A stretch of 64,000 nt of DNA, taken from an uncultured Nitrososphaerales archaeon (lineage in GTDB: Archaea > Thermoproteota > Nitrososphaeria > Nitrososphaerales > Nitrososphaeraceae). Both the position numbers and the translations under genes were made by a program. How positions within the stretch are numbered: the first letter of the stretch is position 1; each line of letters opens with the position of its first letter. The stretch is from NCBI GenBank assembly GCA_963841565.1, contig CAWJCY010000011.1:1-64000 (forward strand), written 5' to 3'. Shown piece after piece: positions 1 to 6,845 of the stretch. The notes under the pieces were generated by a model. The model saw only the letters and a list, made by a program, of their open reading frames with translations. It searched no databases and had not been told where the DNA came from.

Positions 1-91
1 ACTATTGGGCTATCGACGGATCCGGAACGGACCAAGGAGGTTCCGTATGCATTCAATACATGAAGAGTGACATAAAAAAACGCATTCTAGT

Positions 92-876
92 CTACGATAA
101 AGATTTGTGTTTGTCGACCTCTTGCAATACTTCGAGCAGATACTGTTTTATGTCTTGTTGTTGAACCGAGGATTGTATCCCTGACTTTTTTTCCAATTCC
201 ATTCTTTGTTCCTTGACCACATTCTCCAGGTCTGACGCTTTGGACTGCACATGCTTTTCCATTTGTGCTTGGCCGATAGTACTAAGAAAACCAGAGTCTA
301 CCTTGCTGAGATCCTTGATATATTGTCTAAGTCTGATATCTTGCGAAATGGATACTGCTGTTGAGTATAGTCCCAAAATAATCATATACGATGATAACGT
401 CAGCATAGCAAACCTAACAAATCCATATGGGGGATATGAGGCTGCAACTAGTACACCCACACCGGCTATTAAATTTAACACAAATCCATATGAGCAAAGT
501 TGAAGGTATTTTGCGACTGATTTGTTAGCTCTCATTACCTTTGCGATTGTCCAAAACGCAAATCCTAGTAATACCCCTCCAATGACACCATTAAGGGAAA
601 CATACACGTAATAATTGAAAAAGTCGGTATCTAATTCAGGAACATACAATCCAAATGTGTCTACCAAAGTGTTCGAACCAGAGATTATCTGAGATGCGAT
701 ATTCTTGATTAGTCGAATCAGTACAAAGAAAGAAGGATAAATATGGTTGTGAGAATCAAAAACAAAGAAATGCCTAAGGAGGAAAACGGTATAAAAAATC
801 GCAACATTTAATAGATACATCGACACTGAATAGGATTGTGGCAGTAGCAAAAATAGCCAAAAACTAACCTATTCAT
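92..876 (-). pseudogene. Decayed ~10-TM membrane protein (paralogue of 1232-2614) with frameshifts and a large internal deletion
   Basis: ATG at 876. Frame-hopping gives MNRLV/LAIFATATILFSVDVSI/SLGISLFLILTTIFILL/FVLIRLIKNIASQI, matching TM1-TM2 of 1232-2614. It then jumps to the TM8-10 region and tail (ASYPPYG, SISQD, STIGQAQME, ELEKKSGI, YLLEVLQEV). Confidence 0.8.
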
Positions 877-879
877 AAA

Positions 880-1185
880 TCAGTTATTACTTATGCAATA
901 GCCACGGCCTCTGCCAGAGATCTGACCAGATTCATCGCCAGAGCTATCTGGTAATCCTGCTGCTGTAGAGTTATATATTCCGCTACTATTTGTAACTGAA
1001 CTTTGGTTTGCTGAGAGGGTAGTGTTTTCTTGTGCAAATAAATTGCCAATGTTGAATGTGAAGAGGTTCTGTTAACTCAGCGGGCCATAGAATATGGTGT
1101 TAACTGTCGGGTCATACCCACTTGCCGCTGAGTTTACTACCATTGAAATCGAAGTTCTAAAGCCCTCGCCGAGATTAATGGTCAT
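880..1185 (-). pseudogene. Secreted peptide precursor 2 with an in-frame TAA at 1072-1074 (not in ORF track)
   Basis: Manual translation: MTINLGEGFRTSISMVVNSAASGYDPTVNTIFYGPLS*QNLFTFNIGNLFAQENTTLSANQSSVTNSSGIYNSTAAGLPDSSGDESGQISGRGRGYCISNN*. It has an LFAQ cleavage-like site, NxT/S sequons and an SGQISG motif shared with 2804-3055. Confidence 0.7.
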
Positions 1186-1231
1186 TGAATGGTAAGCTCA
1201 TGACGAATTAATAATACCCCAATAAGTCTCC

Positions 1232-2614
1232 CTATGTTGGTTTCTTGGTTTTGCCAACTTCCTGCAATACTTCTTCTAGATAACTCTTGATATCTTCTTC
1301 TTCCATATTTGCTTCTATTCCTGTTTTCTGCTCTAATTCCTTCTCTTGTTCCTGAAGAACGTCCTTGAAACGATCGACTGTTCTTAGTATTTCCTGCTGC
1401 ATATGCGCGGTTCCGATGCTACTCAACAAGTTTGAGTCCTGAGTAGCAACCTTCTTGATTGATTGACGTACCTGATAATCCTGGGAAATAGATATTGCCG
1501 TACAGTACACACCAAGAAAGATCATATACGCGGATAGCGGTAGAGGAATCAATGTTGCGACGCCGAATGGGGGATAAGATGCAGCCGTAAGGGTAAGGTT
1601 GTTTGATATAAAATGCAATACAAAGCCAAAAGCTGCAATTATAAGATACCTTTTCACAATGCTATCCTGACGTATGGTTTTTGCCACAGTCCAAAAGGCA
1701 ATTCCAATAAGGATGCCACCAGCTGAAGTACTCAATGAAGTAATCAACCAATAATAAAATGACTCTGTATCTGTTTCAAGAGTAATTAGCCCAAAATTTT
1801 CAAGTGAAGTGATGATTTTATACAGTATAGGCAGAGATATGACAAGCCAGAATTTTATTCGTCCTATTTTTTTAGAATAATGATGTAAGAGAAGCGCCGT
1901 TCCGGCCATCAATATAACAAATGCTATTGTATAAGTATACTGATAAGTATCAAATGTATTTGCTAAAAATGAGCCTGGCTCGAAGTAATCAGATGGAAAA
2001 GTAACTTCCGATTGAGGAGTTCTTATTGGTTCCTTTTCTGACATAAGAAGGAATTCGTTTACTGAAATGAAAGCCAGACCGAACGCGAATAATGCAAAGG
2101 ATGAAGCATATAGCAAAACAACAACGGAATTCTTATTTGTTCTATACCATGAAAAGAACCGTTGTGCGCAAAGACAGAGTATACCCACAGTCAGGAAGCC
2201 GGTAACACCTGTAACTGCTGTAAGCAAAATAGTGTGATATTTGGAGGTTATAAGGATCTCTAATACAATAAATATCATAATAGCTACTAGGAAGTATTGT
2301 GCAACAGTTACGATCAGGTGAATCATATTGAAATATCGATCTTTTGCTCTTATCTCCCGGCTATTTTCACTCACAAATCTCAAGATAAAATACTGACCGA
2401 CACTGTATACTGCGCATATGATAACGAAGAAGAATATGCTCCAACTGGAAATCAATATCGGAACGATAAAATCGCTCACATAGTTGATCATTATATCAGG
2501 TATCAAAACGGCTACCATGATACAGAAAATTACTAGGATTGTCCTACTATTGTTCTCTTTTAATTTGACTGAGATATTCCTCAGCAAAGATTTGGGGTTC
2601 TTATTTATGTTCAC
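1232..2614 (-). CDS. Uncharacterised ~10-TM membrane protein with C-terminal helical/coiled-coil tail (putative peptide receptor)
   Basis: 460-aa ORF with about 10 hydrophobic segments and a polar loop after TM5. Tail SISQD..SSIGTAHMQ..EQEKELEQKTGIEA..YLEEVLQEV is shared with three other loci in the window. Confidence 0.85.
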   Translation of the reverse strand: MNINKNPKSLLRNISVKLKENNSRTILVIFCIMVAVLIPDIMINYVSDFIVPILISSWSIFFFVIICAVYSVGQYFILRFVSENSREIRAKDRYFNMIHLIVTVAQYFLVAIMIFIVLEILITSKYHTILLTAVTGVTGFLTVGILCLCAQRFFSWYRTNKNSVVVLLYASSFALFAFGLAFISVNEFLLMSEKEPIRTPQSEVTFPSDYFEPGSFLANTFDTYQYTYTIAFVILMAGTALLLHHYSKKIGRIKFWLVISLPILYKIITSLENFGLITLETDTESFYYWLITSLSTSAGGILIGIAFWTVAKTIRQDSIVKRYLIIAAFGFVLHFISNNLTLTAASYPPFGVATLIPLPLSAYMIFLGVYCTAISISQDYQVRQSIKKVATQDSNLLSSIGTAHMQQEILRTVDRFKDVLQEQEKELEQKTGIEANMEEEDIKSYLEEVLQEVGKTKKPT

Positions 2615-2803
2615 GTTCCTTTACCATTTCAAATTTAGTCACAGACATTTAATCAAAAAAAATGTGAGGAAAAATATGACATACTGCTATTAACGTCGGG
2701 TTTGGTTTTTTTCTCATCGAACAAAAGACGGGTTTGCATACTCTGTTAACGGTTATTGAACTTCTGCATTATACTAATCCAATGCTTGTGCCATCTACTC
2801 TGA

Positions 2804-3055
2804 TTAGTCACTGTCTGTATAGCACGTGCCACCGCACCTTCCCCCTCCTGAGATGTGGCCAGACGCCTCCGTCATATTGCCCATGGTCATATTTCCTCCT
2901 GTCATATTTCCAGCCATGGTTGCATTATCAATCACAGTCTGAGCCATCGCAGGGTTTGTTACAGTGAATCCGTTTGTTACAGTGAATCCCGTCGTTGCTA
3001 GAATTCCAGCTCCTACGAAAATTGCAATCAACGCCGAGAACCTTATTTTAGTCAT
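2804..3055 (-). CDS. Small secreted peptide precursor 1
   Basis: 83 aa: signal peptide ending AMA|Q, four NxT sequons (NAT, 3x NMT), then SGHISGG-GRCGGTCYTDSD. TATA box about 25 nt upstream. Confidence 0.8.
   Translation of the reverse strand: MTKIRFSALIAIFVGAGILATTGFTVTNGFTVTNPAMAQTVIDNATMAGNMTGGNMTMGNMTEASGHISGGGRCGGTCYTDSD
2954..2989 (+). repeat. Perfect 18-bp tandem duplication (GTTTGTTACAGTGAATCC x2)
   Basis: Seen directly; encodes GFTVTN twice in precursor 1. Confidence 0.9.
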
Positions 3056-3071
3056 TAATAGATTAGATCTC

Positions 3072-3087
3072 TATAGTACTATATAAG
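3072..3087 (-). promoter_or_regulatory. TATA box (CTTATATA) of precursor 1, overlapping the palindrome TATAGTACTATA
   Basis: About 25 nt upstream of ATG 3055, typical leaderless archaeal spacing. Confidence 0.5.
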
Positions 3088-3724
3088 GAGATGTAAATCT
3101 ATAAAGGAATCCATTAGGAATTCATTTTGGATTGATTGTGATCCGCAAAAGTAAGGAACACTGCAACAATCGCCTTCTAATATCATAAATATTGGATTGA
3201 AAGAAAGATCCGAGCGCATTATTCTCCAATTAACTCTCATCTAAAAGTTCCCTGCATAATCCTTGGGAGTTACATTATGGCAAGCCAGCAATTTAAAAAC
3301 CTAGCCCTCATTGCACATGGAAGAATATCTGGGTATGAAACTTTTAATTCATAGCTAAGAACCTATTTCGTAAAGGATAACTGTAGGTAGTACGACCGTG
3401 GCAAAAAGCTTCCAAGTTATTTTCTAGTGGAAGCCTCCTGATTGTGTAAGATACGCTCTAGGTGTTCAGAAAACCTTTGCGTATATCTATAGTCCCAATG
3501 AGCAGTTTGTTACTAGTATTTGGTGAAATCCAAGAACTTATTCGGCCGGCCCTTGGAATTGGCTCTGCGTGGGAGGTCCACAAGGGCCACCGCTGTTCAG
3601 AAACTGATGCATCATGCAAGCACTATTCATCTAACAATGTTTTGTTACGCGCCCTTTTTTCAATATCTACAAAGAAAACCAACCGATTCAATCTGTGATT
3701 ATTCGAACTGAATATTAGGTGGTT

Positions 3725-4510
3725 CTAGTAAGTAAGCGAATCTATTAATCGCGCAAGAACCCTTGAATTACTCTTACGCCAATAATTGAAATACGGATTA
3801 TGCCCCGACCACCCGTTAACCATCATCTCGAAGTTTCCCAAAATGATTAATTTTTCTTTAGATCGAGAAATGGCTACATTGAGATCCTGAAGGGTCCCTG
3901 CTGCCCCTACTATCCTTTCAGAATTATTTCTAACAAGGGAGAAAAGTACTATGTCTGATTGAGTACCTAAGGCTCCTGTAGTAGTTGTTACTCTGATATT
4001 AGATATACCCATCATTTTGAGATAATACCTAATTTGCAATTTCTGCCCTGTAAACCTAGTAACCATAACTATCGATTTTTTGGTTAAAGTTCTCAAATGA
4101 TTACAAATTTTTGCGCAAGCTCTTGCTTCATGATCATTCAACCACGAGGAAGCTAGAACCTCTTCCTCAGTTCCATCCATATCCACCCATGTTATAACTT
4201 CATCGGGGTCAATAATCTCCCTATATGGGATGTCAGGAGCATGGGCTAATGTCAATCTTCTCATTGCAATATCATTCGCGGATGTTAATCCACCATACTG
4301 AGCAAATTCAATAACTAACCCTGATAATTTATCAGGAAGTCGATGCGTGATATTGAGAATGTCTGATCTAGCCCTTTTAGTTACCCACTCAATAGCGCTC
4401 GCATCTCTATTTGTTAGACCAATAGGTCTGGATTGCTTCGGATCGATTGCTCCGTCATTGATCAAAACATACGGTTCTCCCCCCCGGCAATGTTTTGGGT
4501 CTGAATCCAC
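3725..4510 (-). pseudogene. C-terminal fragment of a Upf1/Dna2-like SF1 helicase (AAA_12)
   Basis: DPKQSRP (motif III-like), HRLP, N-x-x-EA, DIVLFSLVRNN and LNVAISRSKEKLIILGN are present. Walker A/B are absent, and an unrelated gene ends just upstream. Confidence 0.75.
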
Positions 4511-4519
4511 TGGTCGACC

Positions 4520-5083
4520 CTAGAATAATTCCTGAATCACACGATTTATTAGATAGTCTCTTGTTGCTGGTTTCTTTATGAAGCAGCCAAAACTCTCAAC
4601 TGGATGGTGGATTTCTCGTATTGCTTCGTAGTTCACTTCCCCAGATGACATAAAACAAACTTTGATGTTGAGATCAAGCTTTACTATTTTTTCAACGAGT
4701 TCATAGCCATTTACGGTAGGCATGTTAATATCGACAAGTACAAGATCGTAGTAATATGGTTTGAATTCTGCTAATGCGGTTACTGGATTTGAGTACATTG
4801 ATACTTCCATAACCTGAAATTCTGACCCTTGAGCATCTTTTTTGAAATAGCTCTCAAGGCATGTCCTAATTGCTATGGCACTGTCTAGGTCGTCATCTAT
4901 TACTAGAATCTGCTTAGTAACACTAGCCAATTCATTCCCTACCTTGAAAGAGTCAGTATTTTTTATAACTGCCTTCTCAGATGGGGACGATTCAGAAATA
5001 TATTGATTTATCCTATGATTCAATCGAGACTTATCTGGTGTGCCAAAAGATATTCTCGAGTTCAGGTCCGCGATCTTTACCAC
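4520..5083 (-). CDS. Single-domain response regulator (REC)
   Basis: ILVIDDD, DLVLVDINMPTVNGYEL, FIKKP motifs. Confidence 0.9.
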   Translation of the reverse strand: MVKIADLNSRISFGTPDKSRLNHRINQYISESSPSEKAVIKNTDSFKVGNELASVTKQILVIDDDLDSAIAIRTCLESYFKKDAQGSEFQVMEVSMYSNPVTALAEFKPYYYDLVLVDINMPTVNGYELVEKIVKLDLNIKVCFMSSGEVNYEAIREIHHPVESFGCFIKKPATRDYLINRVIQELF

Positions 5084-5428
5084 TTTAGAATAATGACAAG
5101 CTCAAGTTAATATTGATTTATAGACTCCATTGTTAATTAATCAGAACAGATACTTATACTTCAGCTATGCTTGTTATGAAGAATATCCCATTTTCAAACG
5201 ACTTAATGCAATGCAATCGCAGATATAGTCATTGATAGCTACACTATCTGGTCTTCAGAATTAGAATCAACAACGTAAAAAACCTTACAGAAAAGAAGAG
5301 ATATGTTAAGCATGCTTAGTCTATGCAATAACATAAGTAACAACAGGCCATTCTATTAGCTATAAGATAAGTAGACTGACTCGGATTGGTAGATACTATT
5401 AATAGCTGTTTTTTATTGTTAAGGGTTA

Positions 5429-6601
5429 ATGCTAACGACTCTTGGAAGAGAATTCTTACTGTCTATATTATTATCATGTATCTCATTTGTTTCTGTCTAT
5501 TTGGGGGTATGTTCTGTACCGTGTAACGGCCAGTATTTGGCTTTTGCACAGGGTGATAATACCACTACTGATCTTAGTCGATCTTCGAACGCAAGTGTCA
5601 TTACTGTGAACCAGACAACTTCGGATGACGTCGAAAAATTATATAATGAGGGTTATTTAATGTCTAATCTGGGCAGATATAAGGATGCTATAAATTATTT
5701 TGACAAGGTATTGAAGATAGACCCACATCATATTGATTCATTATATTTCAAGGGCCTTACCCTTTCCGATCTAGGCAGAGATGATGAAGCCATAGAATAT
5801 TTTGATAGGCTATTAGTTCTTAAACCCGATTCGCTCCGTGCTCTAAGCAGCAAGGGTAATGCTCTATCCGAGTTGGGTCTATATGAAGAAGCGATTGTTA
5901 ATTATGATAGGGCCATAGACGTAGACCCCAAAGCTATAGGGGTTGTGCATAACAAAGCTTTTGCCCTTTTCAATCTTGGAAGATACGAGGAAGCTTTGGG
6001 TAATTACAATAAAGTATTGTCGATTGAAAAGAACAACTTAGATGCAATGAACGACAAGGGGAATACTCTTCTCAGATTACATAGGAATCAAGAAGCGCTT
6101 GACTACTTTGACAAGATACTCGCCGTTGAGCCAAATAGGGTAGACTTTGTATACAACAAAGGTCTCGCTCTTTCTAGTTCTGGCAGATATCAAGAGGCGC
6201 TTGAATACTATGATAGGGCCGTTGCTATCGATCCTAATTATACCAGGGCACTAAATAATAAAGGATTCATTTTATCTAATTTAGGGGAATACCAAGAAGC
6301 ACTTGGCTATTTTAACAAGATATTGGTCATAGACCCTAATAATGTTGATGCCTTGAATAATAAAGGATATATTCTTTTTAAAGAAGGTAGATATCAAGAA
6401 GCACTTGACAACTATGATAAAGCCCTTGCCATAAATCCTTACTATGTCAAGGCATTGAATAATAAGGGATATGCTCTATATGATTTAGGAAAATATCAGG
6501 AAGCCATAAACTATTCTGATAAAGTCCTAGCAATCGATGGTCATCACGGTCAGGCATTAGATCTTAAGGGTAAAGCCTTACGTGCGATCGATGGTGAGTG
6601 A
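5429..6601 (+). CDS. Secreted TPR-repeat protein
   Basis: N-terminal hydrophobic signal (AFA|Q) and about 9 TPR units (NNKG..L..LG.YQEAL..YDKAL.I.P). Confidence 0.9.
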   Translation: MLTTLGREFLLSILLSCISFVSVYLGVCSVPCNGQYLAFAQGDNTTTDLSRSSNASVITVNQTTSDDVEKLYNEGYLMSNLGRYKDAINYFDKVLKIDPHHIDSLYFKGLTLSDLGRDDEAIEYFDRLLVLKPDSLRALSSKGNALSELGLYEEAIVNYDRAIDVDPKAIGVVHNKAFALFNLGRYEEALGNYNKVLSIEKNNLDAMNDKGNTLLRLHRNQEALDYFDKILAVEPNRVDFVYNKGLALSSSGRYQEALEYYDRAVAIDPNYTRALNNKGFILSNLGEYQEALGYFNKILVIDPNNVDALNNKGYILFKEGRYQEALDNYDKALAINPYYVKALNNKGYALYDLGKYQEAINYSDKVLAIDGHHGQALDLKGKALRAIDGE

Positions 6602-6639: not shown

Positions 6640-6792
6640 CTAAATTTGTATCCTGCTCTTGCCAACTTCCTGCAAGACCTCTTCTATACTCCTAATGTCT
6701 TCATCCATATTCGCTTCAATTCCGGTTTTCTGTTCTAATTCCTTTTCCTGTTCTTGTACGTCGTTCTTGAACCTATCAATTTTTCGAAGCAT
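6640..6792 (-). CDS. 50-aa stand-alone copy of the C-terminal tail of the 10-TM family (or a gene remnant)
   Basis: MLRKIDRFKNDVQEQEKELEQKTGIEANMDEDIRSIEEVLQEVGKSRIQI*, closely matching the end of 1232-2614 at both DNA and protein level. Confidence 0.65.
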   Translation of the reverse strand: MLRKIDRFKNDVQEQEKELEQKTGIEANMDEDIRSIEEVLQEVGKSRIQI

Positions 6793-6845
6793 TTATCATA
6801 AATATATTGAAAAAAGAGAAATCCTTCTAAAACGACCACGGAGTT

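Follow-up and report, generated by a model that had tools for sequence, protein, structure and literature searches.

How ammonia-oxidising archaea, which drive nitrification in soil, sense their surroundings or each other is little known, and a pair of genes at the start of contig CAWJCY010000011.1, from an uncultured Nitrososphaerales archaeon (GenBank assembly GCA_963841565.1), raises the question of whether a peptide could be involved. We analysed the first 64,000 nucleotides (nt) of this contig (hereafter the window), in which a gene for a small pre-peptide (2804-3055, minus strand) precedes a gene for a receptor-like protein with ten transmembrane (TM) helices (1232-2614, minus strand). 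We observed that this pair, cassette 1, is a conserved two-gene unit, kept together within one clade of the 10-TM family. Conserved synteny and the fusion of the same membrane module to histidine kinases make a sensor with a peptide partner the best reading. With a probability of about 0.5, cassette 1 encodes an exported and probably N-glycosylated peptide that acts as the cognate extracellular partner, either ligand or co-sensor, of a sensor lacking a kinase domain. Built from an unannotated, lineage-specific family, it is a candidate system for peptide sensing in archaea that differs from each of the known systems with which we compared it.

The peptide gene, precursor 1, encodes 83 amino acids (aa) from an ATG start to a stop codon at 2804-2806, as read from the open reading frame (ORF); the ATG is preceded at about 33 nt by a TTATATA box. 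The product consists of a basic N-terminus, a hydrophobic stretch, a c-region ending in AMA, Q39, four N-x-T sequons, SGHISG and the tail GGGRCGGTCYTDSD. Codons 1-38 (2942-3055, minus strand) form a predicted Sec-type signal peptide with a putative cut before Q39, as read from the sequence. The spacer behind it (2861-2941, minus strand) carries the sequons N44, N50, N55 and N60 as candidate glycosylation sites, N50 being invariant among the peptides compared; since the source genome encodes an STT3/AglB oligosaccharyltransferase, N-glycosylation of these sequons is plausible. Codons 66-70 (2846-2860, minus strand) specify the conserved motif G-H-I-S-G, followed by the clade-specific tail GGRCGGTCYTDSD (codons 71-83; 2807-2845, minus strand), which gives way to other tails in other clades; the orthologous peptide of a 96% relative ends in ...CGGTC. 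Six-frame translation of the source genome yielded 27 occurrences of SG.IS[GS], the only two precursor-like ones lying at 880-3070. The signal peptide also contains two copies of GFTVTN. In an RNA-library contig (X15) an 18-nt insertion at window position 2962 would add a third unit to the c-region, and a 98% relative likewise differs in this region; the repeat number in the c-region varies.

A spacer of 189 nt (2615-2803, minus strand), with T-runs at 2650-2725, separates the peptide gene from the gene for the 460-aa membrane protein. The latter starts with GTG, and an ATG at the same place in the 96% relative supports this start. The AlphaFold2 (AF2) model, built from a 20-sequence alignment, shows with good confidence ten TM helices and two C-terminal helices, with a predicted local distance difference test score (pLDDT) of 81.7 and a predicted template modelling score (pTM) of 0.82. 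The distribution of positive charge over the loops suggests that both termini lie inside and that five loops face outward. Two of these stand out: the PQSEV-x-FPSD loop is conserved and the S-Y-P-P-F-G loop invariant, with Y347, P348, P349 and G351 identical in 20/20 family sequences. In the alignment of 20 orthologues the two-helix cytoplasmic tail (residues ~386-460) is well conserved, no Asp, Glu, His, Cys or Lys is invariant within the TM helices or loops, and R383, where TM10 ends on the cytoplasmic side, is the only charged residue that never varies. Full-length homology, the S-Y-P-P-[FY]-G loop and the two-helix C-terminal tail place the protein in an unnamed 10-TM family of the Nitrososphaeraceae. 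In the 96% relative the receptor gene (L046 3001-4383) is broken into three ORFs of 157, 243 and 73 aa next to an intact peptide gene, through decay or assembly errors.

Pfam and NCBIfam scans of the receptor-like protein, the truncated second copy described below and the peptide returned nothing above the cut-offs; sub-threshold matches to ABCC10_N, DUF7637, DUF6692 and an arginyltransferase were disregarded. A Foldseek search of the PDB with the receptor model gave 0 matches at E<=0.001, the best being rhodopsins and G-protein-coupled receptors at E 0.07-1 and TM-scores of 0.3-0.5, and a receptor profile run against PDB sequences found a single match at E 0.34, with none usable. In all four of these searches the protein resembles no known transporter or membrane-enzyme family or fold. 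Nor does Pfam find the combination of a HisKA or equivalent domain with HATPase_c that defines a two-component kinase. The layout of cassette 1, the AMA|Q site, sequons, SGHISG motif and tail of precursor 1 and the ten TM helices of the modelled protein bear out part of a preliminary description of this locus made from the sequence.

We then assessed how closely the peptide gene is tied to the family. Criteria for a peptide were fixed beforehand: a hydrophobic N-terminus, at least two sequons and, among the final 20 residues, G.[IV]S. A fitting ORF lay immediately in front of the receptor gene, on its strand, in 15 of the 54 GTDB loci that hold the N-terminus of that gene, which is beyond chance; the one further such ORF elsewhere in these loci also precedes a family member. 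Pooling and de-duplication of loci left 79 distinct full-length members, 73 with at least 300 bp of upstream sequence and 6 without. A peptide gene directly upstream on the same strand was present in 24 of these 73 and absent in 49. All 24 fall within a single 32-row clade of a quick maximum-likelihood tree (IQ-TREE; Shimodaira-Hasegawa-like approximate likelihood ratio support 94), and none among the 44 rows outside it. The same clade includes 6 rows without a peptide gene, two of which have a variant peptide ending in ...QGEILHDR, and 2 rows without upstream data; its sister group contains kinase-fused forms. Precursor 1 orthologues also sit upstream of receptor orthologues in other genera, and three more cassettes are cut off by locus ends. 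The preliminary description had expected SGxISG ORFs to be enriched beside the family and the motif to be conserved, which holds in the one clade (24/73) but fails outside it (0/44).

The association was also visible from the side of the peptide. When a profile of the 24 peptides was run against 61 genomes, 15 of the 35 best matches lay directly upstream of a family member, occupying ranks 1-11, 13-15 and 17, and thus 14 of the best 15. The counts of this search and of the 61-genome distribution given below include two unpublished genomes (G035 and G077), whose sequences are not otherwise used.

What the membrane protein does is suggested by its paralogues. The source genome has about ten matches to the 10-TM family, and two of them (L043 and L044) run on into open frames of 1044 and 1035 codons (C2:86201-89332 and C11:67194-70298). 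Counted from the first Met, these encode proteins of 1036 and 1033 aa in which the 10-TM module is followed by HisKA and HATPase_c; residues 21-453 of the 460-aa protein are homologous to the N-terminus of the 1044-codon frame. Some of the other copies in this genome are broken. Since the module forms the N-terminal part of histidine kinases in paralogues, a receptor fits better than an immunity protein, these being the two roles offered in the preliminary description. We read the 10-TM module as a sensor or input module and not as an enzyme or transporter.

The family itself is large and narrowly distributed. It is present in 58 of 61 sampled Nitrososphaeraceae genomes and, in a class-level sample, in 23/30 genomes of this family of organisms and 0/220 genomes of 13 other families. 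The titles of all homologue records name Nitrososphaerales or Nitrososphaeraceae. Among the genomes searched, the 10-TM family is restricted to Nitrososphaeraceae. When a profile was run against 1.84 billion cluster representatives, 2378 matched at E<=0.001 and 725 at E<=1e-30; they are about 430-470 or about 1000 aa long. No Pfam domain occurs among the matches listed (120 of 175 close homologues), and 'hypothetical protein' is the one name that they bear. The family may be arCOG08821, to which we liken it by description only: one survey lists this arCOG as 'Membrane protein, expanded in Thaumarchaeota' (PMC4158269, Table 2) and as the commonest uncharacterised arCOG in archaeal 'dark matter islands' in 2014 (PMC4158269). 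Neither family nor cassette is described in the literature searched, in which PMC5847659 and PMC4158269 were covered apart from their domain-architecture and arCOG supplements. Cassette 1 ties this very large unannotated membrane family to histidine-kinase signalling and names a candidate ligand encoded alongside; should the peptide be merely a structural partner, the family would still gain a likely sensor role.

Some family members without a peptide gene have a different exported neighbour. Upstream of these, mostly in divergent orientation, lies a gene for a secreted protein of ~250 aa. It occurs within 2.5 kb upstream of 19/79 family members and of 0/24 peptide-linked ones, and by our reading of the tree 17 of the 19 belong to one 22-row clade. 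An example is L066 1965-2717 (minus strand), with a homologue at L090 2052-2822 whose product has no Pfam family. The AF2 model of the ~250-aa protein is beta-rich (pLDDT 88.8) and has no PDB fold match at E<=0.001. The source genome holds such a pair outside the window, with the secreted protein at C3:3379-3924 and the 10-TM gene at C3:4072-5442. That two clades each have their own exported neighbour supports the view that the family works with extracellular partners. A conserved, apparently non-coding 'element' of ~250 nt upstream of peptide-less members, with 0 Rfam matches, proved to be a protein gene on the opposite strand. The secreted partners form a multi-copy family of ~200-260 aa with the core W..WW.W...P...NP..D.TG..C...Q..VWFL.G, and one locus may hold several copies.

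To characterise the peptides further, we aligned all 24 of them. Only Q39 (position +1), N50, G66 and S69 are invariant in 24/24, and mean column identity is only 27%. The shared motif is G-x-[I/V]-S, followed by a short tail whose type is clade-specific (CADRGC, CDTRC, L[LM]P(P), LGP(G), VEDPF(P), RSRS, GGKKR and others). Behind G-x-[I/V]-S-G the tails measure 3-13 residues, are hydrophilic or rich in Gly and Pro, and have no hydrophobic helix. The preliminary description had taken a Cys-containing tail as a shared feature, which does not hold, as only five of the 24 tails have two Cys (that of the window, its 98% and 96% orthologues, the CADRGC type and the CDTRC type). One genus has 12 cassettes with a common GNISG and six different tails. 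Among these cassettes receptors are 82-96% identical when the tails are the same and at most 74% when they differ. In one pair (L055/L021) the N-terminal parts of the peptides are 92% identical, the receptors 69% identical and the tails different; in another (L105/L062) the corresponding values are 52% and 90%, and the tail type is the same. Tail type tracks receptor identity, but the tail-coding sequence abuts the receptor gene and linkage alone explains the pattern. This congruence fits co-adaptation and simple linkage equally; the case hinges on the two recombination-like discordances, and we have not used it as evidence.

Within the peptide-linked clade the outward loops are relatively more conserved than across the whole family (identity in the third outside loop, EL3, 0.43 vs 0.21; EL4, 0.46 vs 0.19). 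A complex prediction for peptide residues 39-83 with the receptor, run without controls, reached an interaction score (ipSAE) of 0.02, the mark being 0.32, and has no bearing on binding either way.

The favoured reading implies the following course. Export of the pre-peptide would take the Sec route, with a cut behind AxA that exposes a Gln as the new N-terminus, and its N-x-S/T repeats would probably be N-glycosylated. The exported peptide would most likely act on the 10-TM sensor as a ligand or as a bound co-sensor, and the sensor would relay the signal by way of its conserved cytoplasmic tail, perhaps by forming pairs with paralogues that bear a kinase. For cassette 1 we infer each of these steps, from export and cleavage to glycosylation, binding and the route of output. 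Several observations weigh against a peptide-partnered sensor. As many as 49 of the 73 family members lack a peptide gene, and the other 20 of the 35 best peptide-like genes had a receptor ORF in 0/20 fetched loci, and 4 of the 20 carry G.IS near the C-terminus; 20 orphans among the best 35 imply that this class of peptide needs no adjacent receptor. Some tails are just 3 residues long, Cys is not conserved, and linkage alone would account for the match between tail type and receptor. Pairwise identity in the peptide-linked clade is 0.46 for the outside loops vs 0.42 for the TM segments; with loops that are no more variable than the membrane part, no specificity-determining face is visible. 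The 460-aa protein has no output domain of its own, and a nearby REC protein as conserved output was dropped, as REC genes are not enriched (3/23 peptide-linked loci vs 3/50 other loci; the source genome has 22 REC genes in 2.05 Mb).

Other explanations of the pair have to be set against this. A bolder version of the peptide-partnered sensor, which we consider rather unlikely, makes the product a diffusible autoinducer: the released tail or the whole glycopeptide would accumulate and be sensed by the cognate receptor, with the tails as pherotypes. Sec-exported pro-peptides whose mature part is C-terminal, such as Phr peptides, have a similar layout, one genus combines a common GNISG with six tails in 12 cassettes, and tail type tracks receptor identity; word depth was also higher for peptide than for receptor contigs in the same RNA runs (27.4 vs 2.0-2.6 and 6.5 vs 2.6), which is a poor measure. 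Protease, exporter and kinase genes are, however, not linked, and the 3-residue tails, the loops without hypervariability and the linkage explanation of the congruence speak against it too. To go further and see here the first peptide-based, or glycopeptide-based, cell-cell signalling of Archaea, with an N-glycosylated pheromone, tail pherotypes and a kinase-less receptor working with kinase paralogues, and in the whole family (>2000 clusters) a set of lineage-specific sensors with linked exported partners, is a speculation that we hold to be doubtful. In the full texts searched, no peptide signal was found described for ammonia-oxidising archaea, and on archaeal quorum sensing these searches listed only a survey of LuxR solos (acyl-homoserine lactone and other signals) and work on marine ammonia oxidisers.

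The membrane protein might instead process, modify, export or anchor the peptide rather than sense it. The operon-like order with the substrate gene first, the spacers of 33-189 nt and an invariant G-x-[I/V]-S that could serve as a processing or attachment site would suit such a role. It is nonetheless improbable, because no residue of catalytic type is invariant in the membrane part, the protein is unlike any known fold of a peptidase, transporter or glycosyltransferase, histidine kinases begin with the same module, and most family members lack a peptide gene. Somewhat less probable still is that the two genes are neighbours without functional coupling, the peptide being a generic small secreted glycopeptide whose position reflects descent only. 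That 20/35 of the best peptide-like genes are orphans, and that small proteins with a signal peptide and (GNMTG)n are common in Nitrososphaeraceae, is what this would predict; yet same-strand adjacency is kept across several genera, with receptors down to 35-40% identity, the motif is invariant, and both genes of the second cassette decayed together. We give the lowest weight, a very small one, to an archaeocin with its immunity protein, in which the peptide would be antimicrobial and the membrane protein would guard the producer. Here a small secreted peptide adjoins a polytopic membrane protein, loci differ among close relatives, copies decay and some tails have two Cys, but Cys is not conserved, glycosylation sequons dominate the peptide, and export or modification genes are not linked. 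The cytoplasmic coiled-coil tail of the membrane protein is moreover strongly conserved, and some of its paralogues are fused to kinases, a combination that to our knowledge is unlike immunity proteins.

Comparison with known systems shows likenesses of cassette 1 to several and differences from each. In the Phr/Rap (RRNPP) systems of Firmicutes a pro-peptide is exported by Sec, its C-terminal 5-10 residues are the signal and are re-imported, and the receptor is a cytoplasmic TPR protein. Cassette 1 shares the small pre-peptide, the Sec-type signal peptide, the variable short C-terminus and the position beside a presumed receptor gene, but has a 10-TM protein in place of a TPR receptor, a peptide packed with sequons and an archaeal host. 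By analogy, the peptide architecture (Sec signal and variable C-terminal end) is compatible with that of Phr-type pro-peptides, to which it is closest. The agr system combines an AgrD leader without a Sec signal, the AgrB peptidase and the AgrC kinase receptor, and ComC and class II bacteriocins have an N-terminal leader ending in GG and an ABC exporter with a C39 peptidase. As in AgrD/AgrC and ComC/ComD, a small precursor gene lies beside that of a polytopic membrane sensor and the signal part varies among relatives. The present peptide differs from AgrD in its Sec-type N-terminus (AxA|Q) and the receptor from AgrC in lacking a kinase; the glycine motif, unlike the double-glycine leader of ComC, is near the C-terminus behind a Sec-type signal peptide. 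No AgrB-like or C39/ABC genes occur among the neighbouring ORFs of positions 1-6000, a genome-wide search for either not having been made.

The sensor side shows similar partial likenesses. HisKA_7TM (PF16927) is comparable in that the same 10-TM module heads HisKA and HATPase_c in paralogues, and it is the nearest named Atlas cluster, at a score of 0.81 that is below the 0.9 lead level and gives only a lead. The module differs in having ten rather than seven TM helices, the window protein stops after the coiled-coil tail, and Pfam gave no match of the 460-aa protein to PF16927 even at E<=1. In LuxP/LuxQ and TorT/TorS a membrane sensor is paired with an extracytoplasmic co-sensor. The gene for an exported partner beside the sensor gene, here two partners in two clades, recalls these pairs; the partners are, however, a glycopeptide-like product of ~45 aa or a ~250-aa protein without a known fold, and not periplasmic binding proteins. 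Archaeosortase substrates (PGF-CTERM and others) need a C-terminal motif, a TM helix and basic residues, a pattern that the peptide tails do not match.

Contigs from the RNA libraries of three studies match 2668-3038, which takes in the peptide gene and some of the spacer, at 95-99% identity. Three of them end at 2668-2697, and one (2586-2736) bridges the spacer into the receptor gene, parts of which are covered by other contigs. The coverage is among the points in favour of the sensor reading, with the reservation that assembled contigs reveal neither strand nor transcript ends nor level of expression and may stem from carried-over DNA. Positions 1-1254 and 3079-3400 had zero cover in four RNA runs, which we do not interpret.

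The preliminary description had seen a second pair downstream of cassette 1, namely a precursor at 1185-880 and a 10-TM protein at 876-92. Neither survived closer analysis. The frame 1185-880 is interrupted by a TAA at 1072-1074, and what precedes it (1072-1185, minus strand) is not a signal peptide but a remnant of the 5' end of a response-regulator gene: codons 1185-1075 (37 codons, MTINLGEGFRTS...) match the start of L045 4429-4941, a 170-aa ORF with a REC domain right behind the receptor gene in the 98% relative. Positions 880-1071 (minus strand) are a 5'-truncated peptide gene remnant of 63 codons without a start codon, ending in ...SGQISGRGRGYCISNN. Its product has mostly lost the signal peptide; over 54 residues it shares 85% identity with positions 19-72 of an intact orthologue of 73 aa (L120 296-517), the first 18 codons of which are absent here. 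The decayed second receptor gene (92-876, minus strand) retains a 252-aa ORF (92-850) that covers TM8-10 and the tail and aligns solely with residues 269-457 of the first protein (47% identity), so that it is not a 10-TM protein. Compared with the intact L120 orthologue, its first ~70 codons are spread across three frames by two frameshifts and 519 nt (L120 757-1275) are deleted, and the last 192 residues are 93% identical; the L120 receptor is in turn 82% identical to P0116. Cassette 2 is a pseudogene pair, the decayed copy of a paralogous cassette. Elsewhere in the source genome a further 10-TM paralogue (G000:C4:84215-85625) has stop codons and a frame change, and with cassette 2 this indicates that family copies decay often.

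The remaining observations concern related genes and the neighbourhood. The orphan peptide-like genes (L150-L169; 20 loci in 15 genomes) encode small secreted proteins with a signal peptide, AxA|Q and (GNMTG)n-like sequon repeats, some ending in acidic or Gly-rich tails, and have no 10-TM gene nearby; they appear to form a wide group of small peptides, rich in sequons, that these archaea export. Cassettes tend to pair within a locus, each with a different peptide type, whether in tandem (the window and L045, 5126-5655), head-to-head (L121, 3736-4308) or convergent (G009:C63:22303-25871), and L127 3212-3984 is a further example of such a locus. A 50-codon piece at 6643-6795 (minus strand) of the window, broken by a TAA, matches residues 408-457 of the receptor tail at 75% identity and looks like a remnant of another family copy and not a microprotein gene. 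The ORFs neighbouring cassette 1 encode a REC protein, a helicase fragment and a TPR protein. The helicase ORF (3725-4510, minus strand; 261 aa), which contains nothing but a C-terminal AAA_12 helicase domain (E 9.6e-24), probably represents a truncated gene for a superfamily-1 helicase; it has the cassette on one side and a REC-only response regulator (4520-5083) on the other.

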